Source of the DNA: a virus
Lineage: Duplodnaviria > Heunggongvirae > Uroviricota > Caudoviricetes
DNA: 19,285 bases
IMG/VR virus record: IMGVR_UViG_2639762844_000001
Location: 1-19,285 of that record
Reading direction: 5' to 3' (one strand)
This document shows, in pieces, positions 1 through 18,127 of the stretch. The translations under genes were made by a program, and so were the position numbers. Positions within the stretch are counted from its first letter, which is position 1; the number at the start of each line of letters is the position of its first letter. A model generated the notes under the pieces. It worked only from the letters and a program-made list of their open reading frames with translations, had not been told where the DNA came from and made no database searches.

Positions 1-1248
1 ATGGCACTGAATATTCCATTCAGAAATGCGTACTATCGTTTTGCATCCAGTTACTCATTTCTCTTTTTTATTTCCTGGTCGCTGTGGTGGTCGTTATACG
101 CTATTTGGCTGAAAGGACATCTAGGGTTGACAGGGACGGAATTAGGTACACTTTATTCGGTCAACCAGTTTACCAGCATTCTATTTATGATGTTCTACGG
201 CATCGTTCAGGATAAACTCGGTCTGAAGAAACCGCTCATCTGGTGTATGAGTTTCATCCTGGTCTTGACCGGACCGTTTATGATTTACGTTTATGAACCG
301 TTACTGCAAAGCAATTTTTCTGTAGGTCTAATTCTGGGGGCGCTATTTTTTGGCTTGGGGTATCTGGCGGGATGCGGTTTGCTTGATAGCTTCACCGAAA
401 AAATGGCGCGAAATTTTCATTTCGAATATGGAACAGCGCGCGCCTGGGGATCTTTTGGCTATGCTATTGGCGCGTTCTTTGCCGGCATATTTTTTAGTAT
501 CAGTCCCCATATCAACTTCTGGTTGGTCTCGCTATTTGGCGCTGTATTTATGATGATCAACATGCGTTTTAAAGATAAGGATCACCAGTGCGTAGCGGCA
601 GATGCGGGAGGGGTAAAAAAAGAGGATTTTATCGCAGTTTTCAAGGATCGAAACTTCTGGGTTTTCGTCATATTTATTGTGGGGACGTGGTCTTTCTATA
701 ACATTTTTGATCAACAACTTTTTCCTGTCTTTTATGCAGGTTTATTCGAATCACACGATGTAGGAACGCGCCTGTATGGTTATCTCAACTCATTCCAGGT
801 GGTACTCGAAGCGCTGTGCATGGCGATTATTCCTTTCTTTGTGAATCGGGTAGGGCCAAAAAATGCATTACTTATCGGAGTTGTGATTATGGCGTTGCGT
901 ATCCTTTCCTGCGCGCTGTTCGTTAACCCCTGGATTATTTCATTAGTGAAGTTGTTACATGCCATTGAGGTTCCACTTTGTGTCATATCCGTCTTCAAAT
1001 ACAGCGTGGCAAACTTTGATAAGCGCCTGTCGTCGACGATCTTTCTGATTGGTTTTCAAATTGCCAGTTCGCTTGGGATTGTGCTGCTTTCAACGCCGAC
1101 TGGGATACTCTTTGACCACGCAGGCTACCAGACAGTTTTCTTCGCAATTTCGGGTATTGTCTGCCTGATGTTGCTATTTGGCATTTTCTTCTTGAGTAAA
1201 AAACGCGAGCAAATAGTTATGGAAACGCCTGTACCTTCAGCAATATAG
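1..1248 (+). CDS. cscB: Sucrose:H+ symporter, LacY-family oligosaccharide permease (415 aa)
   Basis: Full-length ORF with multi-helix hydrophobic profile; sequence recognised from memory as E. coli sucrose permease CscB (MALNIPFRNAYYRF...). Stop TAG at 1246-1248. In csc operons cscB is the last gene of cscKB, so the locus ends here. Confidence 0.9.
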   Translation: MALNIPFRNAYYRFASSYSFLFFISWSLWWSLYAIWLKGHLGLTGTELGTLYSVNQFTSILFMMFYGIVQDKLGLKKPLIWCMSFILVLTGPFMIYVYEPLLQSNFSVGLILGALFFGLGYLAGCGLLDSFTEKMARNFHFEYGTARAWGSFGYAIGAFFAGIFFSISPHINFWLVSLFGAVFMMINMRFKDKDHQCVAADAGGVKKEDFIAVFKDRNFWVFVIFIVGTWSFYNIFDQQLFPVFYAGLFESHDVGTRLYGYLNSFQVVLEALCMAIIPFFVNRVGPKNALLIGVVIMALRILSCALFVNPWIISLVKLLHAIEVPLCVISVFKYSVANFDKRLSSTIFLIGFQIASSLGIVLLSTPTGILFDHAGYQTVFFAISGIVCLMLLFGIFFLSKKREQIVMETPVPSAI

Positions 1249-1257
1249 ACGTAAACT

Positions 1258-1301
1258 TTTTCCGGTTGTTGTCGATAGCTCTATATCCCTCAACCGGAAA
1301 A
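1258..1301. repeat. Perfect 11-bp inverted repeat (TTTTCCGGTTG / CAACCGGAAAA) with 22-nt spacer, 10 nt after the cscB stop
   Basis: Read directly: arms 1258-1268 and 1291-1301 are exact reverse complements. Loop is too long for a canonical intrinsic terminator; could be a protein-binding palindrome or structured 3' end. Confidence 0.4.
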
Positions 1302-1689
1302 TAATAATAGTAAAATGCTTAGCCCTGCTAATAATCGCCTAATCCAAACGCCTCATTCATGTTCTGGTACAGTCGCTCAAATGTACTTCAGATGCGCGGT
1401 TCGCTGATTTCCAGGACATTGTCGTCATTCAGTGACCTGTCCCGTGTATCACGGTCCTGCGAATTCATCAAGGAATGCATTGCGGAGTGAAGTATCGAGT
1501 CACGCCATATTTCGCTATCAGGATTCTGTGTGATGGTTACATCGCCCGGCCCAGGGCTGTTTAGTCATCAGCGCTTTCTGACAGTGCTGAGATTTCAACC
1601 TGTTGCAGTAAAAATGAGTAGATATAAGGCAAGTGTGCTGCCAAACCCATCTTTTACGGGGTGAAGGTAGATTTCGTTTGAAGGGTATC

Positions 1690-1704
1690 TGGTGTCCCCT
1701 GCAG
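1690..1704 (-). other. Prophage att core: 15-bp copy of the argW 3' end (CTGCAGGGGACACCA on the minus strand)
   Basis: TGGTGTCCCCTGCAG at 1690-1704 is the reverse complement of the 3' terminus of tRNA-Arg(CCU) argW as I recall it; identity stops after 15 nt, as expected for a duplicated att core rather than a tRNA gene. Lies 73 bp from the torI stop. Confidence 0.6.
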
Positions 1705-1777
1705 ACATCTACTTGGCGCGGCAGGGGATTGATTGGAATGGTTTTTTTTAGATGTGAAAAATATTTTACCCGCTATT

Positions 1778-1978
1778 TTACCCATTGGCGCGGCTTAAGA
1801 GCTTATTTTTGAATTCACAATGGTCACGATATAACCATCTTGCTCGCCCGTGGATAACTTTGGCTTTTGGCAGGTCGCCGGACTTAATCCGGTCATAGAT
1901 GAAGGTCTTACCGAAGCCAGTATCAGCCATGATGAATTTCAAATCAACCAGTGAATCAGGTTGTAGTTCGTGTTGCAT
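1778..1978 (-). CDS. torI: AlpA/Xis-family recombination directionality factor (excisionase), 66 aa
   Basis: 66-aa ORF MQHELQPDSLVDLKFIMADTGFGKTFIYDRIKSGDLPKAKVIHGRARWLYRDH... recognised from memory as TorI, the KplE1 excisionase; AlpA-type winged-helix pattern; adjacent to the att core at the int-distal end as in K-12. Confidence 0.8.
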   Translation of the reverse strand: MQHELQPDSLVDLKFIMADTGFGKTFIYDRIKSGDLPKAKVIHGRARWLYRDHCEFKNKLLSRANG

Positions 1979-2102
1979 GAGTGCTATCTCCGAATATGGA
2001 ATCGAACCTGCAAATCAGGCAATAAAAAGCCGCATTGATGCAGCAATGGTAGGTCTGGATATCTTGAGAAATGAACAGGCCTCATCGAGTGTGAGACTGT
2101 GG

Positions 2103-2447
2103 TTAGTCCTTGCGTAGCTCGCTGATTCTTCTGTAAGTCTCTGGTGCTTTGTTTCCGTGTATCTTCATTTCAGACTTCAACAGAGCAACGAGAGAATCCC
2201 ATTCGTTGAGGATGCCTTTGAATGCCGGAACGCGCTTTGCAACCTTGTCGAATGAATCTCTGATTTCTGGAATCTGCTCAACAAGTGCAACGCATCGCCG
2301 GAAATCGGCTGCGTCATGTGGAGCACCGAAGCTATGACCATAGATATTCTTTTTCAGTCCACATGCGATTGAGGCAAGAGTTGCGCTACTGATGCCGACA
2401 TCGCCAGTCGATTGCCATTTCAAAACCTTCATAGCCAAATCTGACAT
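2103..2447 (-). CDS. Hypothetical prophage protein, 114 aa, function unknown
   Basis: Clean ORF co-oriented with torI and the lambda-like early genes, typical GC content; no family recognised from sequence (MSDLAMKVLKWQSTGDVGISSATLASIACGLKK...). Confidence 0.55.
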   Translation of the reverse strand: MSDLAMKVLKWQSTGDVGISSATLASIACGLKKNIYGHSFGAPHDAADFRRCVALVEQIPEIRDSFDKVAKRVPAFKGILNEWDSLVALLKSEMKIHGNKAPETYRRISELRKD

Positions 2448-2689
2448 TTCTTGTCTCCATAAAACAAAACTCGCCGTAGCGAGCTCAGATAAAAGAAATC
2501 CCCGTCAGTGCGAGGATGCTGTTCATTGCTGCTATACACTTTTTTGCTCTCAACGTAAGCGGTAGCCCATTCTGTTGGGTTGGTGCAGTTGCTTTTAGGA
2601 AATGCTATTTACCCCTTAAACGTCGGCTGAAAGAGCTAAAATCCATGCAAAAAATTTACGCAATTTTGTGTATTATTGTGCAGTAAGTA

Positions 2690-3292
2690 ATGAGCTATTT
2701 TCTGCGCAAAAAATGGATGGTAAATTTGTCCGGGGCAGGAAAAATTTTATGGGCGCTAAACATGAAAAAAGATTCGTATCCTTATTTGATTTGCATGACA
2801 GTTTCAGGGCTGATCTTTATTTTCCTTTTCTTCTGGTGGCGGGAAGATATCTACAGGGTCACGTTTCTTAATCAGAGTATATCCCACTATTACATTCTGT
2901 TTAGCATGGGAATAGCTTTTCTGTTATCTCTGTTTTGGGTTAAGAAGGGGATAGTAAAACAAAGCGGCTGGAAGAGTCTGTCAGCATACCTTAAGGTTTA
3001 TGCAGGGATGTGCATATTTTCTGGATTTTTTCTGATTATACCCCTTACAACACTAACTTATTTTTTGCCTGGAGAGACATCGTCTTATGTTGCACCGTAT
3101 CGGTATACTTCCGGTAGTTCAAAAAGTTGTTCTGGAGCTGAGGTGGATGACCCCGATCTACATGAGAATATTCGCATTTGCTATCCGTATGGCAATTATG
3201 AGTACGATAATATTATCTATGTTGAAAAGAAAATTAATACATTAGGTGCGGTAGTGACATATGCACAGACCGCGCGTGATGATACTGAATGA
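2690..3292 (+). CDS. AT-rich moron: predicted membrane protein (about 3 TM helices plus Cys/Tyr-rich C-terminal domain), function unknown
   Basis: Only plus-strand gene inside a minus-strand early operon; about 39 percent GC against about 50-55 percent for flanking genes; hydrophobic segments LICMTVSGLIFIFLFFWW, YYILFSMGIAFLLSLFWV, VYAGMCIFSGFFLIIPLTTLTYFL; hairpin terminator just downstream. Start uncertain (ATG 2690, alternative ATG 2762; neither has a strong SD). Confidence 0.6.
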   Translation: MSYFLRKKWMVNLSGAGKILWALNMKKDSYPYLICMTVSGLIFIFLFFWWREDIYRVTFLNQSISHYYILFSMGIAFLLSLFWVKKGIVKQSGWKSLSAYLKVYAGMCIFSGFFLIIPLTTLTYFLPGETSSYVAPYRYTSGSSKSCSGAEVDDPDLHENIRICYPYGNYEYDNIIYVEKKINTLGAVVTYAQTARDDTE

Positions 3293-3326
3293 GATAGTAT
3301 ATAGCGGGCAAGTTTTAGTTAATTTA

Positions 3327-3350
3327 TCGAGGTAATATAATTTACCTCGA
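3327..3350 (+). terminator. Hairpin (9-bp stem TCGAGGTAA / TTACCTCGA, 6-nt loop TATAAT) downstream of the moron gene
   Basis: Read directly; followed by a T-rich stretch (CTCGTTTATT). Sits in the gap between the convergent moron and orf73 genes, so it may act in both directions. Confidence 0.45.
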
Positions 3351-3502
3351 CTCGTTTATTCTGGTATTAATATTTCGCTTTACGATCGATTTTTATCTGA
3401 TGATATCATGCGGTTTTCATATACTGACTTACTGTCTTTTCTCCGTTAGCGATTTTCTCATGCTCAGCGATGATTTTATCTTTGGCTTCTAGTTAATTTC
3501 GC

Positions 3503-3724
3503 TCACTTCGAACCTCTCTGTTTACTGATAAGTTCCAGATCCTCCTGGCAACTTGCACAAGTCCGACAACCCTGAACGGCCAGGCGTCTTCGTTCATCTA
3601 TCGGATCGCCACACTCACAACAATGAGTGGCAGATATAGCCTGGTGGTTCAGGCGGCGCATTTTTATTGCTGTGTTGCGCTGTAATTCTTCTATTTCTGA
3701 TGCTGAATCAATGATGTCTGCCAT
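3503..3724 (-). CDS. TraR/DksA-family C4 zinc-finger protein (lambda Orf73-like), 73 aa
   Basis: CxxC...17...CxxC pattern (CCECGDPIDERRRLAVQGCRTCASC) and length typical of phage TraR homologues that bind RNA polymerase. Confidence 0.8.
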   Translation of the reverse strand: MADIIDSASEIEELQRNTAIKMRRLNHQAISATHCCECGDPIDERRRLAVQGCRTCASCQEDLELISKQRGSK

Positions 3725-3822
3725 CTTTCATTAATCCCTGAACTGTTGGTTAATACGCTTGAGGGTGAATGCGAACAATAAAAAAGGAGCCTGTAGCTCC
3801 CTGATAATTTTGCTTTTCATGT

Positions 3823-4038
3823 TCATCGTTCCTTAAAGACGCCGTTTAACATGCCGATCGCCAGGCTTAAATGAGTTGGTGTGAATCCCATCAGCGTTAC
3901 CGTTTCGCGGTGCTTCTTCAGTACGCTACGGCAAATGTCATCGACGTTTTTATCCGGAAAATGCTGTCTGGCTTTTTTGATTTCAGAATTAGCCTGACGG
4001 GCAATGCTGCGAAGGGCGTTTTCTTGCTGAGGTGTCAT
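3823..4038 (-). CDS. Small lambda-like early-left protein, function unknown (ORF extends to 4104; start placed at internal Met MTPQQ...)
   Basis: ORF in the same operon orientation, in the position of the small lambda b-region ORFs; exact lambda counterpart not recognised. Start codon choice is uncertain. Confidence 0.45.
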   Translation of the reverse strand: MTPQQENALRSIARQANSEIKKARQHFPDKNVDDICRSVLKKHRETVTLMGFTPTHLSLAIGMLNGVFKER

Positions 4039-4114
4039 TGAACAAGCCCCATGTCGGCAAGCATAAGCACACAGAATATGAAGCCCGCTGCCAGAAAAAT
4101 GCATTCAGTGGTTG

Positions 4115-4306
4115 TCATACCTGGTCTCTCTCATCTGCTTCTGCTTTCGCCACCATCATTTCCAGCTTTTGTGAAAGGGATGTGGCTAACGTATGAAATT
4201 CTTCGTCTGTTTCTACTGGTATTGGCACAAACCTGACTCCAATTTGAGCAAGGCTATGTGCCATCTCAATACTCGTTCTTAACTCAACAGGAGATGCTTT
4301 GTGCAT
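4115..4306 (-). CDS. Lambda orf63-like small protein (63 aa)
   Basis: Length and position, overlapping orf60a upstream of exo, match lambda orf63; collinearity with lambda holds at a constant offset from here through ea10. Confidence 0.6.
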   Translation of the reverse strand: MHKASPVELRTSIEMAHSLAQIGVRFVPIPVETDEEFHTLATSLSQKLEMMVAKAEADERDQV

Positions 4307-4461
4307 ACCGCCTCCCGTTTATTATTTATCTTCTCAGCCAGCCGCTGTGCTTTCAGGGGATTTCTGATAACAGAAAGGCCGGGAAATACCCAGCCTCGCT
4401 TTGTAACGGAGTAGACGAAAGTGATCGCGCCTACCCGGATATTATCGTGAGGATGCGTCAT
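4279..4461 (-). CDS. Lambda orf60a-like small protein (60 aa from MTHPHD...)
   Basis: Internal Met gives exactly 60 aa, ending 4 nt inside exo; matches the lambda arrangement. Confidence 0.55.
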
Positions 4462-5138
4462 CGCCATTGCTCCCCAAATACAAAACCAATTTCAGCCAGT
4501 GCCTCGTCCATTTTTTCGATGAACTCCGGCACCATCTCGTCAAAACTCGCCATGTACTTTTCATTCCGCTCAATCACGACATAATGCAGGCCTTCACGCT
4601 TCATGCGCGGGTCATAGTTGGCAAAGTACCAGGCATCTTTTCGCGTCACCCACATGCTGTACTGCACCTGGGCCATGTAAGCCGATTTTATTGCCTCGAA
4701 ACCACCGAGCCGGAATTTCATGAAATCCCGGGAGGTAAACGGGCATTTCAGTTCAAGGCCGTTGCCGTCACTGCATAAACCATCGGGAGAGCAGGCGGTG
4801 CGCATACTTTCGTCGCGATAGATGATCGGGGATTCAGTAATATTCACGCCGGAAGTGAATTCAAACAGGGTTCTGGCGTCGTTCTCGTACTGTTTTCCCC
4901 AGGCCAGCGCCTTAGCATTAACTTCCGGAGCCACACCGGTGCAAACCTCAGCCAGCAGGGTGTGGAAGTAGGATATTTTCATGTCAGGCCACTTCTTTCC
5001 TGAGCGGGGCTTTGCTATCACGTTGTGAACTTCTGAAGCGGTGATGACGCCGAGCCGTAATTTGTGCCATGCATCATCCCCCTGTTCGACAGCTCTCACG
5101 TCGATCCCGGTACGCTGCAGGATAATGTCCGGTATCAT
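4458..5138 (-). CDS. exo: Lambda exonuclease (Red alpha), 226 aa
   Basis: Near-identical to lambda Exo as recalled ([50 protein letters not shown]...); 4-nt overlap with bet as in lambda. Confidence 0.95.
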
Positions 5139-5920
5139 GCTGCCACCTTCTGCTCAGTGGCTTTCTGTTTCAGGAATCCAAGAGCTTTCACTGCTTCGGC
5201 CTGTGTCAGTTCTGACGATGCGCGAATGTCGCGGCGAAATATCTGGGAACAGAGCGGCAATAAGTCGTCATCCCATGTTTTATCCAGGGCGATCAGCAGA
5301 GTGTTAATCTCCTGCATGGTTTCATCGTTAACCGGAGTGATGTCGCGTTCTGGCTGACGTTCTGCAGTGTATGCAGTATTTTCGACAATGCGCTCGGCTT
5401 CATCCTTGTCATAGATACCAGCAAATCCGAAGGCCAGACGGGCACACTGAATCATGGCTTTATGCCGTAACATCCGTTTGGGATGCGACTGCCACGGCCC
5501 CGTGATTTCTCTGCCTTCGCGGGTTTTGAATGGTTCGCGGCGGCATTCATCCATCCATTCGGTAACGCAGATCGGATGATTACGGTCCTTGCGGTAAATC
5601 CGGCATGTACAGGATTCATTGTCCTGTTCAAAGTCCATGCCATCAAACTGCTGGTTTTCATTGATGATGCGGGACCAGCCATCAACGCCCACCACCGGAA
5701 CAATGCCGTTCTGCTTATCAGGGAAGGCGTAAATTTCTTTCGTCCACGGATTAAGGCCGTACTGGTTGGCGACGATCAGCAATGCGATGAACTGCGCATC
5801 GCTGGCATCACCTTTAAATGCCGTCTGGCGAAGAGTGGTGATCAGTTCCTGTGGGTCGACAGAATCCATGCCGACACGTTCAGCCAGCTTCCCTGCCAGC
5901 GTTGCGAGTGCTGTACTCAT
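5135..5920 (-). CDS. bet: Lambda Bet single-strand annealing protein (Red beta), 261 aa
   Basis: Near-identical to lambda Bet as recalled ([66 protein letters not shown]...). Confidence 0.95.
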
Positions 5921-5925
5921 CCGTT

Positions 5926-6342
5926 TTATACCTCTGAATCAATATCAACCTGGTGGTGAGCAATGGTTTCAACCATGTACCGGATGTGTTCTGCCATGCG
6001 CTCCTGAAACTCAACATCGTCATCAAACGCACGGGTAATGGCTTTTTTGCTGGCCCCGTGGCGTTGTAAATGATCGATGCAGAGTGATTCAAACAGGTGC
6101 TGGGGCAGACCTTTTTCCATGTCGTCTGCCAGTTCTGCCTCTTTCTCTTCACGGGCGATCTGCTGGTAGTGACGCGTCCAGCTCTGAGCCTCAAGACGAT
6201 CCTGAATGTAATAAGCGTTCATGGCTGAACTCCTGAAATAGCTGTGAAAATATCGCCCGCGAAATGCCGGGCTGATTAGGAAAACAGGAAAGGGGGTTAG
6301 TGAATGCTTTTGCTTGATCTCAGTTTCAGTATTAATATCCAT
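5926..6342 (-). CDS. gam: Lambda Gam, RecBCD inhibitor, 138 aa
   Basis: Near-identical to lambda Gam as recalled ([36 protein letters not shown]...). Confidence 0.95.
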
Positions 6343-6440
6343 TTTTTATAAGCGTCGACGGCCTCACGAAACATCTTTTCATCGCCAATAAAAGTGGCGA
6401 TAGTGAATTTAGTCTGGATAGCCATAAGTGTTTGATCCAT
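6297..6440 (-). CDS. kil: Lambda Kil host-killing protein (FtsZ inhibitor), 47 aa
   Basis: [47 protein letters not shown]; overlaps gam by 46 nt and cIII by 32 nt, as in lambda. Confidence 0.85.
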
Positions 6441-6573
6441 TCTTTGGGACTCCTGGCTGATTAAGTATGTCGATAAGGCGTTTCCATCCGTCACGTAATT
6501 TACGGGTGATTCGTTCAAGTAAAGATTCGGAAGGGCAGCCAGCAACAGGCCACCCTGCAATGGCATATTGCAT
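6409..6573 (-). CDS. cIII: Lambda CIII, FtsH (HflB) protease inhibitor, 54 aa
   Basis: [54 protein letters not shown] recognised as lambda CIII. Confidence 0.9.
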   Translation of the reverse strand: MQYAIAGWPVAGCPSESLLERITRKLRDGWKRLIDILNQPGVPKNGSNTYGYPD

Positions 6574-6645
6574 GGTGTGCTCCTTATTTATACATAACGA
6601 AAAACGCCTCGAGTGAAGCGTTATTGGTATGCGGTAAAACCGCAC

Positions 6646-7014
6646 TCAGGCGGCCTTGATAGTCATATCATCTGAATCAAATATTCCTGATGTATCGATA
6701 TCGGTAATTCTTATTCCTTCACTACCATCCATTGGAGGCCATCCTTCCTGACCATTTCCATCATCCCAGTCGAACTCACAAACAACACCATATGCATTTA
6801 AGTCTTTCGAAATTGCTATAAGCAGAGCATGTTGCGCCAGCATGATTAATACAGCATTTAATACAGAGCCGTGTTTATTGAGTCGGTATTCAGAGTCTGA
6901 CCAGAAATTATTAATCTGGTGAAGTTTTTCCTCTGTCATTACGTCATGGTCGATTTCAATTTCTATTGATGCTTTCCAGTCGTAATCAATGATGTATTTT
7001 TTGATGTTTGACAT
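6646..7014 (-). CDS. ea10: Lambda Ea10-like early protein (122 aa)
   Basis: Length and sequence match lambda ea10 as recalled; position between cIII and the ral-side region. Confidence 0.8.
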   Translation of the reverse strand: MSNIKKYIIDYDWKASIEIEIDHDVMTEEKLHQINNFWSDSEYRLNKHGSVLNAVLIMLAQHALLIAISKDLNAYGVVCEFDWDDGNGQEGWPPMDGSEGIRITDIDTSGIFDSDDMTIKAA

Positions 7015-7034
7015 CTGTTCATATCCTCATAGAT

Positions 7035-7060
7035 AAAAAATCGCCCTCACACTGGAGGGC
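7035..7060 (-). terminator. Intrinsic terminator on the leftward transcript (stem GCCCTC/GAGGGC, loop ACACTG, then U6), upstream of ea10; lambda tL2-like
   Basis: Read directly: 7043-7060 hairpin, A6 on the plus strand at 7035-7040 gives a U-tract on the minus-strand RNA. In lambda the equivalent terminators are overridden by N, which is absent here. Confidence 0.5.
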
Positions 7061-7226
7061 AAAGAAGATTTCCAATAATCAGAACAAGTCGGCTCCTGTT
7101 TAGTTACGAGCGACATTGCTCCGTGTATTCACTCGTTGGAATGAATACACAGTGTGAAGTGGTTTACTGAATTTGGCCACCTGAACAGAGGTGATATGCT
7201 CACCTCAGAACAACACAGGTGCCATA

Positions 7227-8374
<1,148 letters not shown>

Positions 8375-8404
8375 CTCGGTGGCCAGTTTTTGTTGACCAC
8401 TTCA

Positions 8405-8536
8405 ATCACTGCCGAGCTGGCGAACGGTCAGGTCTATGTACTGTCGTCTGCCTGGCTGCACGGCGAAGCGAACCATAATGCCGAAGAAGGCACGGTTGAT
8501 CTTGAGTTCCACGGTGAAGAAGGGGATTACCAGTAA
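8405..8536 (+). pseudogene. 3' fragment (last 43 codons) of a phage tail-tube-like gene truncated by IS911
   Basis: Open frame runs from the IS911 boundary (ITAELANGQVYVLSSAWLHGEANHNAEEGTVDLEFHGEEGDYQ*) with stop overlapping the next start (TAATG); no start codon, so it is a truncated remnant. Confidence 0.5.
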
Positions 8537-8805
8537 TGAAAGAGCTTGAGTTAAAGAAACCGATTATCGCTCATGGTGAGACACTCTCCGTACTGGAGTT
8601 TGATGAACCCACCGGGAAGGATGTCCGCGAGCTGGGGTATCCCTACCAGATGAATCAGGATGAGTCCGTCAGACTTCTGGCGCATGTGGTGTCGAAATAC
8701 ATTGTGCGGCTGGCGAAAGTGCCGCAAAGCTCTGTCGACCAGATGTCTCCGGCAGACCTGAATGCAGCGGCGTGGCTTGTGGCTGGTTTTTTCCTCCAGG
8801 CCTGA
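8536..8805 (+). CDS. Phage tail assembly chaperone (lambda G / Mu gp41 analogue), 89 aa
   Basis: Small acidic ORF directly upstream of the tape measure gene with a -1 overlapping extension frame; classic G/GT arrangement. Confidence 0.75.
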   Translation: MKELELKKPIIAHGETLSVLEFDEPTGKDVRELGYPYQMNQDESVRLLAHVVSKYIVRLAKVPQSSVDQMSPADLNAAAWLVAGFFLQA

Positions 8806-8954
8806 CGGCTGAATACCTCACTGATCGCTTCTTTGACTGCGCCAGCTACTGGCGCATTAATCCCTTCGAATTGCTGAATATGCCGATCAGTGAAATTCCC
8901 TTGCTGGTCAGTCAGGCAAACAGGATAGAGCAGGAGAAACGCACACATGGCTGA
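8536..8954 (+). CDS. Frameshift-extended tail assembly chaperone (G-T-like fusion, about 139 aa) via -1 slip
   Basis: The -1 frame is open from the slippery site to 8954 and ends overlapping the tape measure start (ATGGCTGA). Confidence 0.6.
8787..8793 (+). promoter_or_regulatory. -1 programmed frameshift slippery heptamer T TTT TTC in the tail chaperone gene
   Basis: Zero-frame codons GGT TTT TTC; the -1 frame gives ...W F F P P G L T... continuing 54 codons. Confidence 0.6.
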
Positions 8955-10782
8955 ATTTGAGCTTAAGGCGTTGATCACCGGTGTCGACAGGCTTTCTCCC
9001 GCGCTGTCGAAAATGCAAAAGAAAATCCGGGGATTTAAACGCCAGGCGGAAGAAGCGTCACAGGGTGGGCTGGCGCTTGGTGGCGGATTGGCAGCGGGGC
9101 TGACGCTTTCCCTGAAATCTTATGCCGATCAGGAAAACGCCGCTACCGGGCTGAAAGTCGCCATGATGGATGCGAACGGCGAGGTTGGAAAGAGCTTTCA
9201 GGACATCAATAAACTGGCTATTGGCCTGGGTAACCAGCTACCCGGTACAACGGCTGATTTCCAGAACATGATGCAGATGCTGGTGCGTCAGGGGATCCCG
9301 GCAGAAAACATTCTGGGTGGTGTGGGTAAAGCGACAGCTTATCTTGCGGTACAACTGAAAAAAACACCGGAAGCGGCTGCCGAGTTTGCAGCAAAGATGC
9401 AGGATGCTACCGGAACGGCCTCAGAAGACATGATGGGGCTGTTCGACACAATTCAGAAGGCGTTTTATCTGGGCGTTGACGACACCAACATGCTGTCATT
9501 CTTCACTAAAACCAGCTCTGTTCTGAAGATGGTGAATAAGGACGGTCTTCAGGCTGCACAGAGTCTTGCCCCCATCAGTGTCATGATGGATCAGATGGGG
9601 ATGAACGGGGAGTCGGCAGGTAATGCCCTGCGAAAAGTTATCCAGTCCGGATTAAGCGTTAAGAAAATTAGGGACGTCAATAAAGTCATGGCCCGCCAGA
9701 AACTCGGGATACAACTCGATTTTACTGATGGCAAAGGGAGTTTTGGCGGTCTTGATAACATGTTCAGGCAACTGGCAAAGTTGCGAAAACTGACCGACGT
9801 TAAGCGAACAGGCGTACTTAAGGCAATATTTGGTGATGATGCCGAAACCCTTCAGGTGGTCAATGCCCTGATCGATAAAGGAAAGGATGGCTACGATCAG
9901 ATCCAGCAGAAGATGAATAAACAGGCCAGCCTGAATAAACGTGTTCAGGCTCAGCTTGGTACGCTGTCCAACCTGTGGGAGGCAATGACGGGGACCGCAA
10001 CTAACGGTCTTGCAGCTATTGGCGGCGCATTTTCTGGTGACGCTAAAAATATCACGCAATGGCTGGGGGAGTTAGGGGAAAAATTCACAAAGTTTGCGGA
10101 TGAAAATCCCCGGGTTATTCGCGGCGTCGTCGGGCTTGCTGCCGGTCTTGCGATTCTGAAGCTGGGATTGATGGGCGTGGGCAGTGCCATCAGTATTGTC
10201 AGCAGGATCATGTCGATGACGCCGATTGGCATGATTGCGACGGCGATAGCCCTGGCTGCGGGATTAATTATCACTAACTGGGATGTTGTCGGACCTTATT
10301 TTAAGAAACTCTGGGAAACCATTGGTCCTTATTTTGAGGCTGGCTGGGAACTCCTTAAGAAAGTTTTTGCCTGGTCGCCGCTGGGGATGGTGATCAATAA
10401 CTGGGGGCCGGTTGTTAAGTGGTTTCAGGATATGTGGGACAAGCTGAAGCCGATTATTGAATGGTTTACCGACAGTTCCGGTGACACGGTCGATACCATT
10501 AACTCGGCGCAGTGGGGCGCGGGTGCTTATGATGCTTATGGGACGGGAATACCGGCACGGGGATACACTCCTTATCCGGCGGTAGATCTGGCTCAGTCAA
10601 ACAACGCCTCCGATGCCACAGGCCCGAATCCCTTCATGATTAACAAAGCTTCTGCGCCAAAAGTTGATGGTGAGATCAAGGTCTCTTTTGTGAATTCGCC
10701 TCCGGGTATGCGGGTTATGGAAACGCGAACCAGCGGTTTTGATGTCAGCCATGATGTTGGCTATACGCGCTTTGGCAGGTAA
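8947..10782 (+). CDS. Tail tape measure protein, 611 aa
   Basis: Long Ala/Gly/Gln-rich largely helical protein with C-terminal hydrophobic and Trp-rich segment, immediately after the chaperone frameshift pair. Confidence 0.9.
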   Translation: MAEFELKALITGVDRLSPALSKMQKKIRGFKRQAEEASQGGLALGGGLAAGLTLSLKSYADQENAATGLKVAMMDANGEVGKSFQDINKLAIGLGNQLPGTTADFQNMMQMLVRQGIPAENILGGVGKATAYLAVQLKKTPEAAAEFAAKMQDATGTASEDMMGLFDTIQKAFYLGVDDTNMLSFFTKTSSVLKMVNKDGLQAAQSLAPISVMMDQMGMNGESAGNALRKVIQSGLSVKKIRDVNKVMARQKLGIQLDFTDGKGSFGGLDNMFRQLAKLRKLTDVKRTGVLKAIFGDDAETLQVVNALIDKGKDGYDQIQQKMNKQASLNKRVQAQLGTLSNLWEAMTGTATNGLAAIGGAFSGDAKNITQWLGELGEKFTKFADENPRVIRGVVGLAAGLAILKLGLMGVGSAISIVSRIMSMTPIGMIATAIALAAGLIITNWDVVGPYFKKLWETIGPYFEAGWELLKKVFAWSPLGMVINNWGPVVKWFQDMWDKLKPIIEWFTDSSGDTVDTINSAQWGAGAYDAYGTGIPARGYTPYPAVDLAQSNNASDATGPNPFMINKASAPKVDGEIKVSFVNSPPGMRVMETRTSGFDVSHDVGYTRFGR

Positions 10783-10806
10783 TGAAAAATTAATCTGTTA
10801 ATGAGT

Positions 10807-10829
10807 CCCACTTCGGTGGGCTTTTTTAT
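10807..10829 (+). terminator. Candidate intrinsic terminator (CCCAC-TTCG-GTGGG plus T6) between the tape measure and DNA-circulation genes
   Basis: Read directly: 5-bp GC stem with TTCG tetraloop followed by CTTTTTTAT, 25 nt after the tape measure stop and just before the SD/ATG at 10843. Confidence 0.4.
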
Positions 10830-10842
10830 ATCCGGAGTTTAT

Positions 10843-12171
10843 ATGACGTGGAAAGACAGGCTTCAGGATGCGTCATTTCGAGGTGTGCCGTTTAAGGTTG
10901 AAGAAGAAAGTGCGGGAACCGGCCGTCGTGTGGAAACACACGAATATCCGAACCGCGACAAACCCTATACCGAAGATCTGGGAAAAGTCACTTTCCGCCC
11001 GTCCATCACAGCTTATGTGGTGGGAGATGACTGCTTTGACCAGCGCGATCGCCTGATTGAAGCGCTGAATAAACCCGGTCCCGGCACGCTTGTCCACCCG
11101 ACATATGGTGAGCTGAAAGTCTGTGTTGACGGGGAAGTTCGGGTCAGCACATCGAAAAGTGAAGGGCGTATTGTCCGCTTTGACCTGAAGTTTGTCGAAG
11201 CGGGAGAACTCTCTTACCCCACATCAGGTGCGGCGACGGCGCAGACGCTGATGTCATCCTGTTCTGCACTGGATGACTGCATCAGTGAAAGTTTCAGTGG
11301 TTTCAGTATCGATGGCGTGGCAGATTTTGTGCAGAACGACGTCGTCGGTAATGCCGGCACAATGCTTGGGTATGTTTCTGATGCGATGAAAGTGGTGGAT
11401 TCTGCCGTATCGGATGCCGCCAGGCTGTTGCAGGGGGATATCTCGGTACTTCTGCCGCCGCCATCGTCAGGCAAAAATTTCGTTGAACAGGTGCAGAAAA
11501 TGTGGCGTACCGGGAAACGCCTTTATGGTAACGCCAGCGACCTGGTCACCATGATCAAAACGCTTTCCGGTGTCAGCCTCGGCAGCGATCTGCAACCGCG
11601 CGGCGTCTGGAAAACGGACAGTAAAACCACCGCTACGGCGACGCAGCAGCGTAACGTGGTTGCCAGCATCCTTCGTACGACCGCAATCAGCGAAGCGGCG
11701 TATGCCGTCACCCGATTGCCTGCGCCAACAACTTCCGCGGTGATGCAGAATGCCGCAGTGGGGCAGGCAACAACACCCGCGCAGAGCACTGGCTGGCCTT
11801 CCGTCACGCATCCGGCACTGAACAATGCACCGGCGGTGAAAAGCACGGTTGACCTGCCGACGTGGGAAGAACTGACTGACATTCGCTACACACTGAATAC
11901 GGCAATTGATAAGGAGTTGTCCCGCACAACCAGTGATGCGCTGTTTCTGGCGCTGCGCCGGGTGAAAGCAGATCTGAATGCGGATATCAACACGCGCCTT
12001 GAACAGTCTGCACGGATCATTCAGCGCACGCCGGATGAGGTTTTACCCGCACTGGTGCTGGCGGCGACCTGGTTTGATAACGCGGCGCGTGACGCGGACA
12101 TTATCCGGCGTAATGCCATTACGCATCCCGGCTTTGTGCCGGTGATCCCTCTGAAGGTGCCAGTGCAATGA
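10843..12171 (+). CDS. Mu gp43-like DNA circulation protein (tail/baseplate), 442 aa
   Basis: N-terminal MTWKDRLQDASFRGVPFKVEEESAGTGRRVETHEYPNRD... typical of the Mu DNA-circulation N-domain; position after the tape measure gene; SD GGAG before the ATG at 10843 (the ORF track starts at an upstream ATG inside the terminator). Confidence 0.75.
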   Translation: MTWKDRLQDASFRGVPFKVEEESAGTGRRVETHEYPNRDKPYTEDLGKVTFRPSITAYVVGDDCFDQRDRLIEALNKPGPGTLVHPTYGELKVCVDGEVRVSTSKSEGRIVRFDLKFVEAGELSYPTSGAATAQTLMSSCSALDDCISESFSGFSIDGVADFVQNDVVGNAGTMLGYVSDAMKVVDSAVSDAARLLQGDISVLLPPPSSGKNFVEQVQKMWRTGKRLYGNASDLVTMIKTLSGVSLGSDLQPRGVWKTDSKTTATATQQRNVVASILRTTAISEAAYAVTRLPAPTTSAVMQNAAVGQATTPAQSTGWPSVTHPALNNAPAVKSTVDLPTWEELTDIRYTLNTAIDKELSRTTSDALFLALRRVKADLNADINTRLEQSARIIQRTPDEVLPALVLAATWFDNAARDADIIRRNAITHPGFVPVIPLKVPVQ

Positions 12172-13247
12172 ACGATAACGTCACGCTACGGGTAAATGGC
12201 CGGGAGTGGAATGGCTGGACATCGGTGCGCATCGGTGCCGGTATTGAACGGCTGGCGCGGGATTTCAGCGTGGAGATCACCCGCCAGTGGCCGGGAGATG
12301 AGGGTATCACCACGCTTCAGCCGCGCATTAAAAATGGTTCAAAAGTGGAAGTGCTGATTGGTGATGAGCTGGTGATCACCGGCTGGGTGGAGGCGACCCC
12401 CGTTCGTTACGATGCCCGTTCGGTCAGCACCGGTATTGCCGGACGTAGTCTGACTGCTGACCTGATTGACTGTGCAGCCGAACCGACACAGTTTAACGGA
12501 CGATCGCTGGTACAGATTGCGCAGGCGCTTGCTGCGCCTTTCGGCATTGAGGTGGTGAACAGCGATGCGCCGTCGGGTGTTATTCCGGATGTCCAGCCTG
12601 ATCACGGTGAAACGGTGATCGAGGTGATCAACAAAATACTCGGTCAGCAGCAGGCGCTGGCTTATGACGACCCGCACGGCAGGCTGGTGATTGGTGGTAT
12701 TGGCTCAACGCGGGCACATACCGCGCTGGTACTTGGGGAAAACATCCTTTCCTGTGATACGGAGAAGAGTATCCGGGAGCGGTTTTCAGTTTACCAGGTG
12801 GCGGGGCAGCGTGCCGGAAACGACGATGATTTCGGTGAGGCCACCACCACCGCGCTGCGGGCCCGCACAGAGGATGCATTTATTGCCCGTTACCGTCCGA
12901 TGTATATCAGGCAGACAGGGCAGGCTACGGGGGCAGGCTGTATTGCGCGTGCTGACTTTGAAGCCCGACAACGGGCGGCGCGGACGGATGAAACCACCTA
13001 TGTGGTGCAGGGCTGGCGACAGGGTAACGGTACGCTGTGGCAGCCCAACCAGCGGGTGATTGTCTTCGATCCGGTCTGTGGTTTCGACAATACCGAACTG
13101 CTTGTCTCGGAAGTCACGTTTACTCAGGACCAGAATGGCACCCTGACGGAAATCCGTGTCGGCCCACCTGATGCTTATCTGCCTGAACCCGAAGCCCCCG
13201 GCGCGCGGAAAAAGAAAAAAGCCAGAGTACAGGAGGACCCGTTCTGA
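12168..13247 (+). CDS. Mu gp44 (P)-like baseplate hub protein, 359 aa
   Basis: Gene order and size match the Mu/SfV/e14 tail module; start overlaps the previous stop (ATGA). Confidence 0.7.
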   Translation: MNDNVTLRVNGREWNGWTSVRIGAGIERLARDFSVEITRQWPGDEGITTLQPRIKNGSKVEVLIGDELVITGWVEATPVRYDARSVSTGIAGRSLTADLIDCAAEPTQFNGRSLVQIAQALAAPFGIEVVNSDAPSGVIPDVQPDHGETVIEVINKILGQQQALAYDDPHGRLVIGGIGSTRAHTALVLGENILSCDTEKSIRERFSVYQVAGQRAGNDDDFGEATTTALRARTEDAFIARYRPMYIRQTGQATGAGCIARADFEARQRAARTDETTYVVQGWRQGNGTLWQPNQRVIVFDPVCGFDNTELLVSEVTFTQDQNGTLTEIRVGPPDAYLPEPEAPGARKKKKARVQEDPF

Positions 13248-13795
13248 TGAAGGCGATTGAAACCATACAGCGACAACTCCTCGGCCTGATTGGGCGGGCG
13301 GTGGTGAAAAGCATCAGTGCCGCCACGAAATGTCAGACCGTGGATGTATCCCTGATTGCCGGTGAACCCAAAGCCGGGGTTGAACATCTTGAACCCTACG
13401 GTTTTACCGCAAGGGCAAACAGCGGTGCGGAAGCGGTGGTGTTGTTTCCGGATGGTGACCGTTCTCATGCGGTGGTTGTTACGGTGTCGGACCGGCGCTA
13501 CCGCCTGAAAGGGCTGCAGACGGGTGAGGTGGCTGTCTATGACGATCAGGGGCAGTCCGTGACGCTGACCCGGGAGGGGATCGTGGTGGACGGTGCAGGT
13601 AAAACGATCACGTTTCGCAATTCACCTAAAGCACGTTTTGAAATGGACCTGGAAGTGACAGGACAGGTGAAAGACCTGTGCGACTCCAGCGGCACCACCA
13701 TGTCAGCGATGCGGCTTGCCTATAACGGGCATCGTCACAGAGAGAACGGTCAGGGCAGTAACACCGACAAACCTGATAAAGCGATGGAGGCATGA
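13247..13795 (+). CDS. Baseplate assembly protein V-like (Mu gp45-like spike), 182 aa
   Basis: Size and order; translationally coupled (TGATGA) to the hub gene. Confidence 0.7.
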   Translation: MKAIETIQRQLLGLIGRAVVKSISAATKCQTVDVSLIAGEPKAGVEHLEPYGFTARANSGAEAVVLFPDGDRSHAVVVTVSDRRYRLKGLQTGEVAVYDDQGQSVTLTREGIVVDGAGKTITFRNSPKARFEMDLEVTGQVKDLCDSSGTTMSAMRLAYNGHRHRENGQGSNTDKPDKAMEA

Positions 13796-14220
13796 TGGAA
13801 CTGTGGCTGACGGTGAACGGTAAACGCACCTGCGCCAGCGCACCGCTGGATCCGCTGACCCGCGCCGTGGTGATTTCCCTGTTTACCTGGCGGCGGGCGG
13901 AGCCTGATGACAACGCCGACGTCCCGATGGGATGGTGGGGGGATACCTGGCCTGCGGTACAGAATGACCGTTACGGCTCCCGACTGTGGCTGCTTCAGCG
14001 CAGCAAACTGACCAATCAGCTGGTGCTGACGGTAAGGGGGTATATCCGCGAATGCCTGCAATGGATGATTGATGACGGCGTGGTGTCCCGTATTGATCTG
14101 GATATCCGCCGCACCGGGATTAATGAACTGGGTAACAGTATCACTCTCTGGCGTCGTGACGGACCGGTAATGATTTCTTTTGATGATCTGTGGAGTGCGA
14201 TAACGCATGGCGGACAGTGA
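13792..14220 (+). CDS. Mu gp46-like baseplate protein, 142 aa
   Basis: Size and order in the Mu-like baseplate cluster; start overlaps the upstream stop. Confidence 0.65.
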   Translation: MMELWLTVNGKRTCASAPLDPLTRAVVISLFTWRRAEPDDNADVPMGWWGDTWPAVQNDRYGSRLWLLQRSKLTNQLVLTVRGYIRECLQWMIDDGVVSRIDLDIRRTGINELGNSITLWRRDGPVMISFDDLWSAITHGGQ

Positions 14221-15265
14221 ATTTCAGCGCCCGACGCTGGCTGAAAATATCAGTATGCTCCGTAACGATTTATTCGCCAGGCTGGACGTCAGCGACACGC
14301 TCCGGCGCATGGATGAAGACGTGCGGGCAAAGGTGTATGCGGCGGCGCTGCATACGGTTTACGGGTACATCGATTATCTGGCAATGAACATGCTGCCTGA
14401 CCTGTGCGATGAGTCCTGGCTGGCGCGACATGCTGCGATGAAACGGTGTCCGCGCAAGGGGGCCACGGCTGCCAGCGGGTATATGCGCTGGGAAGGTGTC
14501 AGCGATGGCCTGAAGGTGACCGCCGGGAGTGTTATTCAGCGCGATGACCTGGTTCAGTATACTGCAACTGCCGATGCAACCAGCTCCGGTGGTGTCCTGC
14601 GCGTGCCGATCGCCTGCTCAAATGCAGGCGCGGTCGGTAACGCTGACGACGGTACGGCATTAATCCTGGTCACGCCGGTGAATGGTCTGCCGTCTTCCGG
14701 TGTGGCTGACACCCTGACAGGCGGATTTGATACTGAAGAGCTGGAAACGTGGCGCGCCCGCGTCATTGAGCGGTATTACTGGACGCCGCAGGGCGGGGCT
14801 GACGGGGACTATGTCGTATGGGCTAAAGAAGTGCCCGGCATTACCCGCGCATGGACATACCGTCACTGGATGGGAACGGGAACTGTCGGTGTGATGATTG
14901 CCAGCAGTGACCTGATTAATCCCATTCCGGAAGAATCAACGGAAACGGCGGCAAGACAACATATCGGGCCACTGGCCCCGGTGGCAGGCTCTGATTTGTA
15001 TGTGTTCAGGCCGGTGGCACATACGGTGGATTTTCATATCCGCGTGACGCCGGACACACCGGAAATACGGGCTGCCATCACCGCGGAGTTGCGTTCGTTC
15101 CTGCTGCGTGATGGTTATCCGCAGGGAGAACTGAAGGTATCGCGTATCAGTGAGGCGATTTCCGGTGCGAACGGGGAATACAGCCATCAGTTGCTTGCAC
15201 CGGCAGACAATATCTCCATTGCAAAAAATGAACTGGCGGTACTGGGGACGATTTCATGGACGTGA
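14207..15265 (+). CDS. Baseplate J-like protein (Mu gp47-like), 352 aa
   Basis: Size and order; overlapping start. Confidence 0.75.
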
Positions 15266-15840
15266 CAAACGATGATTACATCCGTCTGTTGTCGGCACTG
15301 TTGCCCCCCGGTCCGGCGTGGTCAGCCAGCGATCCGGCGATTGCCGGTGCGGCACCGTCATTAACCCGCGTTCATCAGCGTGCGGATGCCCTGATGCGGG
15401 AGCTGGATCCGCGCACCACCACTGAACTGATAAACCGCTGGGAGCGTCTGTGCGGTCTGCCGGATGAATGTATTCCCGCAGGGACACAGACCCTTCGCCA
15501 GCGTCAGCAACGGCTGGATGCGAAGGTTAACCTGGCGGGCGGCATCAACGAGAATTTTTATCTTGCACAGCTTGCTGCCCTGGGCAGACCAGACGCTACC
15601 ATCACGCGATACGACAAAAGCACGTTCACCTGCTCATCGGCCTGTACTGACGCGGTGAATGCGCCGGAATGGCGGTATTACTGGCAGGTCAACATGCCAG
15701 CCGCCACAAACACCACCTGGATGACATGTGGCGATCCCTGTGATTCCGCGCTGCGTATCTGGGGCGACACCGTTGTCGAATGTGTGCTTAACAAACTCTG
15801 CCCGTCGCATACCTACGTAATTTTTAAATATCCGGAGTAA
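15256..15840 (+). CDS. Mu gp48-like tail protein (YmfQ/DUF2313-like), 194 aa
   Basis: Size and order; Cys-rich C-terminus; directly precedes the tail fibre gene. Confidence 0.7.
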
Positions 15841-15843
15841 TCC

Positions 15844-16767
15844 ATGCATCGTATAGACACGAAAACCGCGCAGAAGGATAAGTTCGGCGCGGGTAAGAAC
15901 GGTTTTACCCGTGGTAACCCCCAGACTGGCACACCTGCCACCGATCTGGATGATGACTACTTTGATATGTTGCAGGAGGAGCTTTGCAGCGTGGTGGAGG
16001 CATCCGGTGCCAGCCTGGAGAAGGGGCGGCACGATCAGTTGCTTACCGCACTTCGCGCGCTGCTGTTAAGCCGCAAGAATCCGTTTGGCGATATCAAATC
16101 GGATGGCACTGTGCAAACGGCTCTCGAAAACCTTGGTTTGGGAGAAGCCACATTTGGCGCTCAAAATTGCGCTGTATTTGATAATGCAGGCGTCAGCACC
16201 TGGAATGTTCCTGACATAGTGAAAAAGGGCCGACGCGTCAGGGTGAAGGTTATCGGCGGTGGCGGGTCTGGCGGTTACCCGTCGATAAGCTCAACGAACG
16301 CTGCCGGTGGCGGCGGCGGTGGCGGCGGTGGTGTGAGCGAGTCCGTCATTGACTTAACAGGTATTGACACCGTCACAATCACTGTAGGCAGTGGTGGAAA
16401 AGGTCAAAATACGTCAGCAAGAAACGGAAATCCTGGTGGCACCAGTAGTTTTGGCACATATCTCTCGGCAACAGGCGGATATGGTGGAGGTCAGATATCC
16501 GGAGGAGTGGGGGGAGAAGGTGTGGGGGGGCAGATAAATACGTCTCTTGGCCCAGGCTCTCCTGGTGCATCAATGATAGCAGGCACTGATTCGGCTGTCG
16601 GAGGTAGTGGCGGTGGTCCTGGCGGGCATGGACAGGTTTTAGATTCGGCGGGGAATGTTGGCAGTAATGCAAAAGGTCCTGGCGGTGGTGGCGCTGGGTT
16701 GGCAACGAAAAAGACTGGCGGAGTTACTGGTGCTGGTCATAGCGGGATTGTAATTATTTATTGGTGA
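15844..16767 (+). CDS. Tail fibre protein with conserved N-terminal anchor and glycine-rich C-terminal region, 307 aa
   Basis: N-terminus [40 protein letters not shown]... resembles side tail fibre N-domains; the C-terminal half is Gly-rich (G9 run encoded by a GGN repeat near 16305-16332). Confidence 0.7.
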
Positions 16768-16777
16768 GGTATAAATT

Positions 16778-16945
16778 ATGTGGGCACGAATTGAAAACAA
16801 CGTGGTAATGGAGTTAACTGATATAGACCCAACGGGTAGATATCATGACTCGTTAATCTGGGTTGAATGCCCTCCTGACACTCAGCGTGGCTATATATAC
16901 AATAGCGGCGAATTTACGCCTCCACCGGAGGTGGCAGCCAGTTGA
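16778..16945 (+). CDS. Small ORF (55 aa) downstream of the tail fibre; possible tail fibre assembly or accessory protein, or remnant
   Basis: ATG 11 nt after the fibre stop; phage-like GC content. Below the 60-aa cutoff of the ORF track; identity not recognised. Confidence 0.35.
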   Translation: MWARIENNVVMELTDIDPTGRYHDSLIWVECPPDTQRGYIYNSGEFTPPPEVAAS

Positions 16946-17258
16946 TATCGAAGGCATTCAGAATGTTATGCCACGTTAAAAATTCTGCAGATTCATCACA
17001 TTATTCAGTCATTCTTCAAAGTAAATGGCTAATTACGACAATGTTAAATTTCAGCTTTGAAGTGCCATTGGCTATCTTTCTTGCATATTCATCAGTAAGT
17101 AGCTTCAATAGACTGCCTTCACATTCTGGAAGGCATATTTTGCTTTGGTCATCTTTCTGAATTTCCAGACACCTGACTCGATAGTGTCGAGATACTATCT
17201 TTACTCGTGAGAGTTAGGTTGGACCAGATTGCTTTATCGAAACTAAAGGATTGAGACA

Positions 17259-17297
17259 AGTGTCATTCTTTTTTAAGTCTTTTACCTGAATGACACT
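17259..17297. repeat. Perfect 10-bp inverted repeat (AGTGTCATTC / GAATGACACT) with 19-nt T-rich spacer, 50-90 nt downstream of the minus-strand cargo gene
   Basis: Read directly; may be a terminator or a binding site at the 3' side of the AT-rich gene. Confidence 0.4.
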
Positions 17298-17346
17298 AAA
17301 TCTTTAATACTACTGATAATTTCCTTTAGATATTCTTGTCGAGTGG

Positions 17347-17934
17347 TTATCTAAATGTTTTGATATACTTGAGATAATATCTGTGTCTGAAGTTGAACAA
17401 TACATCTCCCGGGTAAATATTACCATTGCTCTCAACGAGTCCTTTGTTTTCTTTCGAGGTGAAAGATATCGTTCTTTTTATTTTTAACTCATTAAATTTC
17501 ATTACATCCATGTAACTTCCATCTCTATCACACATTTTAAAAACAACTCTATCAAGGCCATGTGATGATATAAAAGATTGAAGTCTTTTTATTCTTCTAT
17601 TCCATTTATCCATGGCTTCTGCCCTTGAGTTATAATGCATAAAGTATATTTTTACTCCATCCACAAATGCAACGGGGAAATTATGCTCTGTATTAATGAA
17701 ATCGCTTTCAACAATGTCTCTTGATAAAAAATGCTCCAAATTAATACACATTTCAACAAAATCAGATGCTGTGATGTACAGGCCGATAAAGGGAGTATTA
17801 TATTCAAGTCCTATATTTTTATATAGTCTATAGCCCCAGCAGTTATTGGATACAATAGCGAAAGGACGGGTTATTAAAATTTTGTCCAGAAAGTCAAATA
17901 ATCCAGTTTTGTGCAATATCTTATCTACCAACAT
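17347..17934 (-). CDS. AT-rich integrase-proximal cargo gene, 195-aa soluble protein of unknown function; tentative resemblance to DUF1919 proteins of polysaccharide loci
   Basis: About 33 percent GC inside a roughly 50-55 percent GC prophage; SD AAGGA 7 nt before the ATG; co-oriented with intS 193 bp downstream of it, in the slot that holds gtrABS in K-12 KplE1. The motif SNNCWGY...GLEYNTPFIGLY matches my recollection of the DUF1919 hallmark; not verified. Confidence 0.65.
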   Translation of the reverse strand: MLVDKILHKTGLFDFLDKILITRPFAIVSNNCWGYRLYKNIGLEYNTPFIGLYITASDFVEMCINLEHFLSRDIVESDFINTEHNFPVAFVDGVKIYFMHYNSRAEAMDKWNRRIKRLQSFISSHGLDRVVFKMCDRDGSYMDVMKFNELKIKRTISFTSKENKGLVESNGNIYPGDVLFNFRHRYYLKYIKTFR

Positions 17935-18127
17935 GTCATAATCCTTATGTTGTTTTATAGTGTATAATGTGAGTTTGTTATTTTTTAAATTGCAATTAAA
18001 TATTAGATAAATTTAATTGTCGTACATATAGAATATTATATGAATAAACCCAAAAAAACAACCAACCTAAAGGCTTTACTCTCGCCATATTATGTGAGTT
18101 GGATAATTGTACGGCGATATAGGTGGA

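Follow-up and report, generated by a model that had tools for sequence, protein, structure and literature searches.

The genes located between exo and xis in bacteriophage lambda, namely ea8.5, orf55, ea22, orf61, orf63, and orf60a, are dispensable early accessory genes (PMC3824215, PMC8614690). Among their products, Ea8.5 is described as a homeodomain/zinc-finger hybrid (PMC8614690). The closest described relative of the gene studied here is the open reading frame of phage 434 annotated as ORF114 (M60848.1, AAA67902.1), which is the last gene of the pL operon before the excisionase. The same arrangement is found in the window, that is, in the whole stretch of 19,285 nucleotides of Caudoviricetes DNA that was analyzed. 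Here, an ATG-to-TAA reading frame of 114 codons (2103-2447, minus strand) is placed between torI (1778-1978, minus strand), annotated by PGAP in the identical region of NZ_CP041919.1 and coding for an excisionase that is also an inhibitor of TorR, and a divergent 200-residue open reading frame of the membrane type (2690-3292, plus strand). ORF114 and torI are both on the minus strand, co-oriented as the original prediction had it, and the gene lies between exo (4458-5138, minus strand) and torI, on the same strand as both of them.

This gene is orthologous to ORF114 of phage 434 and to HK022p30, and its product belongs to PHROG 1229. The protein matches the PHROG 1229 profile over its entire length, with residues 1-114 aligned to positions 1-113 of 116 (E 1.9e-51, 174 bits), and it shares 96.5% amino acid identity with the 434 protein over 114 of 114 residues by tblastn. 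Phage Gally encodes an identical protein, and phages 2851 and mEp043 encode proteins with 99% identity, while the record of Salmonella phage g341c annotates its own copy as similar to HK022p30. A near-identical full-length protein and the same local synteny both place the gene in the orthologue group of phage 434 ORF114. In RefSeq the protein is named simply a hypothetical protein (WP_001281200.1), and PHROG 1229 carries no functional annotation. The gene had been taken for an unrecognised one, which does not hold, as it is ORF114 in M60848.1, HK022p30-like according to the g341c record, and a PHROG 1229 member; it is a long-catalogued lambdoid phage reading frame without an assigned function. 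The companion statement that it has no recognisable motifs is correct for Pfam and NCBIfam. The Pfam search returned nothing at E <= 1 except a sub-threshold DUF5798, the NCBIfam search nothing significant, and the defense models of PADLOC-DB 2.0 nothing at E <= 0.1, and the comparison of 65 aligned relatives with the same curated families (Pfam, NCBIfam, and PADLOC) likewise gave nothing significant. No literature was found on the function of phage 434 ORF114, its accessions, PHROG 1229, or HK022p30; the sequence was not found in the supplements of phage accessory-gene screens, and a modeling paper on the exo-xis region does not treat it.

The length of 114 residues is by itself weak proof of a gene, because the window also contains spurious open reading frames of 100-108 residues antisense to real genes, which the list of reading frames places opposite exo and bet. 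ORF114 is nonetheless a genuine, selectively constrained gene for a 114-residue cytoplasmic protein, because it combines a Shine-Dalgarno sequence, full-length homologues, low dN/dS ratios, and the full-length match to PHROG 1229. The tblastn search with the protein matched 275 phage records, 254 of them at full length, and megablast with the gene found it in 914 of 5,426 complete Escherichia coli genomes (17%, at a coverage of at least 80%). Among the E. coli matches listed, each copy is annotated as an intact hypothetical protein. The dN/dS ratios, calculated by the method of Nei and Gojobori, are 0.12 against phage 434, 0.15 against g341c, and 0.05 against phage 2851, while the comparison with Gally shows no non-synonymous change at a dS of 0.08. 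The GC content of 47% is similar to that of the adjoining early genes. The claim that the 114-residue reading frame is real is therefore borne out by the ribosome binding site, the 254 full-length phage homologues, the dN/dS values of 0-0.15, and the PHROG match, and the frame is conserved in relatives, both in the E. coli matches listed and in functional phages, whereas a lack of such conservation had been named as grounds for refutation.

The likeness to phage 434 goes beyond the protein. A block at window positions 2025-2815 is common to both at 94-98% nucleotide identity (blastn against M60848.1), and contains the start of the divergent membrane-type frame, the terminator tL4, ORF114, which has the same length in both, and the terminator t'I. 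The block aligns in two parts, window 2472-2025 with M60848.1 539-988 (ORF114 and t'I), and window 2815-2445 with M60848.1 1-371 (the start of the divergent frame, tL4, and the leader of ORF55). The two loci differ in that 434 has an extra gene, ORF55, between tL4 and ORF114, which is absent from the window, and in that a lambda-type xis/int pair lies downstream in 434 and torI in the window. In 434 and Gally, ORF55 and ORF114 each follow their own cassette, made of a hairpin, a U-tract, GGAGA, six bases, and the ATG. In the window and in g341c, the alignment of the upstream regions (window 2445-2530; M60848.1 286-376 and 490-575) shows that ORF114 carries the cassette that in 434 precedes ORF55. 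This pattern would fit recombination between the repeated cassettes that deleted or inserted ORF55. At the other end of the gene, the stretch 2025-2100 with its t'I-type terminator is common to 434, to the prophage in the window, and to K-12-type torI prophages without ORF114, and behaves as a common junction where different cassettes join.

Translation signals and terminators are packed closely around the gene. A Shine-Dalgarno sequence, GGAGA (2454-2458, minus strand), can be read 6 nucleotides upstream of the ATG, and the motif GGAGA-N6-ATG is invariant in the upstream alignment with 434, Gally, and g341c. Ahead of it, the terminator scan detected two tandem intrinsic-terminator hairpins, at 2517-2498 and 2486-2467 (2467-2517, minus strand), which fold at -21.8 kcal/mol (z -2.85). 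These tandem terminators end about 10 nucleotides before the ribosome site, into which the U-tract of the second hairpin extends. The first hairpin is the counterpart of 434 tL4, as found by mapping the 'terminator t-L4' annotation with blastn, and the g341c record also annotates a Rho-independent terminator directly upstream of its ORF114 copy. On the other side, the gap between ORF114 and torI holds a t'I-type hairpin followed by a T-run (2029-2044, minus strand), found by the terminator scan, to which the 434 'terminator t'-I' (M60848.1 968-991) maps, with a fold that taken alone is no better than that of shuffled sequences (z -1.0).

No sigma-70-like promoter was found between the upstream terminators and the ATG, nor on the minus strand within 2450-2875. 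As the stretch from the terminators to the ATG offers no promoter, intact phages would produce the ORF114 protein only once N-type antitermination allows transcripts from pL to pass tL4, so that expression would belong to the early period following infection or induction and would not occur in the lysogen. This dependence on antitermination is deduced from the hairpins and the 434 annotation. With terminators on both flanks, not only the expression of ORF114 but also read-through from it into torI would need antitermination. The leftward transcript had been expected to run through the gene into torI; its position before the excisionase on the pL transcript agrees with this in intact relatives, although a t'I-type terminator intervenes.

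In the prophage of the window itself, such a transcript lacks an evident source, as an IS3-family element together with deletion has removed N, pL, and the immunity region. What is left is a remnant of about 17.5 kb between cscB and intS (1250-19285). It runs from torI through ORF114, the membrane-type frame, a DksA/TraR gene, small exo-xis genes, exo, bet, gam, kil, cIII, and a DUF2528 gene to the IS3-family element, with an rve transposase at 7556-8374 and a probable orfA at 7191-7529. Directly after the element come a tape-measure-like gene (8947-10782) and Mu-type baseplate genes (10801-15265), and further on a tail-fiber-like gene, a DUF1919 gene, and a tyrosine integrase (18128-19285). 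None of the N, pL, immunity, replication, lysis, or head genes was found in the window. Because the prophage has lost N and pL, its copy of ORF114 is most likely a silent passenger. In strain Ec40743, an otherwise identical region continues differently beyond its IS. The attR side adjoins csc sucrose-utilisation genes: cscB lies inside the window (1-1248), and the matching genome continues outward with cscA, a gene for a LacI-family regulator, and a truncated dsdX. There is no tRNA gene inside the window, and argW must therefore lie beyond the integrase end.

The upstream neighbor, the hydrophobic reading frame at 2690-3292, is outside the ORF114 unit. Only its C-terminal 88 residues match a phage family, PHROG 1416 (function unknown), with an E of 2e-50. 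It has a GC content of 35-40% and its own terminator-like hairpin (3327-3350), and appears moron-like. Phage 434 carries the start of this region, annotated in another frame as 'ORF-22+'.

The downstream neighbor, torI, is a different mosaic module from ORF114. A check of the two genes across argW prophages had been proposed, and comparison of E. coli genomes revealed no specific link of ORF114 with torI or with argW prophages: the two genes are contiguous in 285 of the 914 E. coli genomes that carry ORF114 (31%, measured with a spanning query at a coverage of at least 80%), and K-12-type prophages lack ORF114. The K-12-type match covers only positions 1778-2100, comprising torI and the intergenic stretch up to the ORF114 stop codon, and the K-12 prophage, with functional TorI and IntS, has no ORF114. 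Elsewhere, the gene adjoins lambda-type, P22/HK620-type, and other int/xis modules. In 434 and Gally it is followed by its own pair of excisionase and integrase genes, explicitly of the lambda type in 434, in g341c by two small reading frames and then an HK620-type integrase, and in phage 2851 by an integrase on the opposite strand.

The wider neighborhood was surveyed by clustering the reading frames from 92 loci, which fall into 34 homologue groups at 80% identity. An integrase is found within four genes downstream in 9 of these 34 groups, and these integrases belong to three families according to their arm-binding domains (Arm-DNA-bind_1, _2, and _3); the other 25 groups have no nearby integrase of the three recognised families. 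In phages of Vibrio, Klebsiella, Yersinia, Aeromonas, and Arthrobacter, the homologue lies amid early DNA-metabolism genes, among them those for RusA, an RdgC-like exonuclease, an HNH endonuclease, and a Ser/Thr phosphatase, and in P22-like phages of Salmonella a DUF550 pyrophosphohydrolase is a recurrent neighbor. No constant partner gene was found over the 34 groups, the recurrent ones being integrases and excisionases of three types and DUF550. In Vibrio phage K71, the homologue stands alone on the opposite strand among tail genes, between the tape-measure gene and others (L008, 2872-3330). Accessory 'moron' genes are typically placed in this way, alone on the opposite strand inside a block of genes. 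One IMG/VR contig (L080) holds two ORF114 paralogues. Taken together, ORF114 is not a companion of torI but an independent and self-contained mosaic cassette, located at the distal end of the leftward early operon.

It belongs to a very large family, whose members occur in phages, temperate as well as apparently lytic, that infect Gram-negative or Gram-positive hosts. A profile built from six close relatives retrieved 2,838 family representatives at E <= 0.001 and 657 at E <= 1e-10, each representative standing for a cluster at 50% identity. Homologues were found in phages of Vibrio, Klebsiella, Mannheimia, Aeromonas, Arthrobacter, and Clavibacter, and the related PHROGs are 8038, 15291, and 4212. 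In the last of these, with a profile of 353 positions, the ORF114 domain is N-terminal, and the remainder of the protein is uncharacterised. The family is not uniformly basic, with a median pI of 6.1 and a range of 4.6-10.4, against 9.2 for the copy in the window.

Roughly one in three of the 150 best-scoring relatives exceeds 150 residues in length; of the 50 longer ones scanned, 49 have no Pfam domain, and these gave nothing significant in the curated family searches (Pfam, NCBIfam, and PADLOC). A single metagenomic protein (P0247) has a CCA-adding/poly(A) polymerase-HD enzyme fused to the ORF114 domain. A link to tRNA repair was considered for this fusion and set aside, as it is a single case and the fused part is covered in none of the 683 phage records with that enzyme. 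Another metagenomic protein (P0155) carries the ORF114 domain twice in tandem. Several E. coli proteins join the domain to Ea22, ERF, DUF550, or Kil (the chimeric proteins being P0015, P0017, P0029, P0035, P0049, P0052, P0053, P0063, and P0068); they were rejected as true architectures, since they look like recombinants or mis-called chimeras of neighboring early genes. Such chimeras suggest either frequent recombination or gene-calling artefacts among these neighbors.

The AlphaFold2 model of the protein, computed from the alignment of 65 sequences, has seven helices, with a pLDDT of 95.6 and a pTM of 0.89. This is a high-confidence prediction of a compact globule of seven helices, which has no solved structural relative. 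Foldseek gave no match of the model in the PDB, and searches of the PDB by sequence and by profile gave none either. In BFVD, all matches of the fold search were uncharacterised phage proteins from this family, apart from a marginal one to a giant virus (E 0.06), and fold comparison also gave weak TetR-like matches. No transmembrane segment and no enzyme-like family match were found. In the 65 sequences, most of them about 30-40% identical to the query, eight residues are invariant without exception (W11, S21, P43, D45, D48, R51, C52, and P60), and G15, G18, S20, A25, E61, and W83 are nearly so. W11 and W83 are assumed to be core residues. S20 and S21 lie at the start of predicted helix 2, and the box D45-P-x-D48, followed by R51 and C52, at the start of helix 3. 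The patterns S-x-x-T and D-P-x-D are ordinary helix-capping boxes, and in the model most of the invariant polar residues would belong to boxes of this kind, S-x-x-T at helix 2 and D-P-x-D at helix 3.

Compared with the exo-xis genes of lambda, ORF114 occupies the same slot, between the equivalents of exo and xis on the pL transcript, and its neighbors in the window include a DUF1317 gene (orf60a-type), a DUF1382 gene (orf63-type), and the gene with a DksA/TraR zinc finger. However, its family extends far beyond the lambdoid phages, and, unlike Ea8.5, ORF114 is predicted to form a seven-helix globule without a zinc site. None of the Pfam profiles for the exo-xis proteins Ea8.5, Ea22, Orf60a/DUF1317, Orf63/DUF1382, and Orf61 matched it.

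The function that we favor, tentatively and at a little below an even chance, is that of a dispensable stand-alone binding module of the host-takeover or counter-defense type, acting on a conserved cellular component. The protein would be a delayed-early accessory factor, expressed only under antitermination, and would bind its target during early lytic development. We lean toward this function because of the exo-xis placement, the spread over unrelated phages, the lack of a constant partner or an enzyme signature, and the capping-box nature of the conserved residues; the moron-like placement in Vibrio phage K71 was also counted in favor of an accessory factor. The role of anti-host factor or regulator raised at the outset drew no support from the sequence, the fold, the fusions, or the literature. 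No hint of host takeover or counter-defense was found among the fusions, the neighbors, or the folds, and the eight invariant residues, which include a lone cysteine, speak against a binding module in that they could mark an active or ligand site instead of a scaffold. Those residues, invariant in 65 of 65 diverse sequences and including also two aspartates, an arginine, and a serine, are the main argument for a small enzyme, or for a 'sponge' that binds a small molecule or nucleotide, for instance to neutralise a host signal, or for a protein that modifies a host factor, with S20, S21, D45, D48, R51, and C52 as the active or ligand site. The two conserved motifs open helices 2 and 3, and the N-terminal ends of helices often form anion-binding sites; the fusion to the CCA-adding enzyme points in the same direction. 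We nevertheless consider an enzyme or sponge improbable, as no enzyme or known sponge was matched by sequence or fold, both boxes are common capping motifs, the fusion is a single one absent from the 683 phage records with the enzyme, and 49 extended relatives have no Pfam domain. A broader version of the binding module, in which the whole family would form a new class of early host-directed inhibitors, for counter-defense or host takeover, that bind a universally conserved bacterial component, is rather unlikely.

Also unlikely, although more probable than an enzyme or sponge, would be a small DNA-binding regulator of early transcription or of the lysis-lysogeny decision, with a non-canonical helix-turn-helix. 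In such a protein, the first two helices and the Gly-rich turn between them (G-[VI]-G-x-S-S-K-x-M-A) would sit on a helical bundle, somewhat as in a miniature TetR-type protein, which would fit the weak TetR-like fold matches and the HTH-like motif G-I-S-S-x-T; other exo-xis genes are also known to affect the lysis-lysogeny decision (PMC3824215, PMC8614690). A role as an accessory of site-specific recombination, coupled to the downstream Xis and Int (here TorI and IntS) and, for example, tuning excision, has in its favor that xis/int or int directly follows ORF114 in 434, Gally, g341c, 2851, a phage of Mannheimia, and many IMG/VR prophages, and that the nearby integrases, within four genes in 9 of the 34 groups, are of three arm-binding types. 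This role is nonetheless very improbable, given that a terminator separates ORF114 from xis, that torI is paired with it in only 31% of the E. coli carriers while the K-12 prophage with functional TorI and IntS does without it, and that in the 25 groups without a recognised integrase nearby ORF114 is surrounded by early DNA-metabolism or even tail genes. Neither Pfam nor PHROG searches gave ORF114 any match to the winged-helix families Xis, AlpA, or HTH_17, to which it shows no similarity; TorI, by contrast, gave weak sub-threshold matches to HTH_17 and Phage_AlpA, and matched the excisionase PHROG 66. ORF114 is probably not a component of the machinery for excision. Finally, the location in a remnant without pL and N, and the spurious frames of similar length in the window, could suggest a chance reading frame, or a pseudogene decaying in a defective prophage. 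The probability of this is negligible in view of the dN/dS of 0-0.15, the conserved ribosome binding site, the very large family, the confident predicted fold, and a frame that functional phages and the listed matches from the 914 E. coli genomes keep intact, and for the family as a whole the idea is already refuted.

For the window itself these findings are of little consequence, as they concern a catalogued hypothetical phage gene in a decayed prophage, in which the link to torI fails. The family is a reasonable target for functional work, as it comprises about 2,800 clusters (50% identity) and occurs in 17% of complete E. coli genomes, Stx phages included. Its appeal also lies in the strong purifying selection, in its absence from Pfam, and in a confidently predicted fold without a solved relative. 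[quoted passage not shown]
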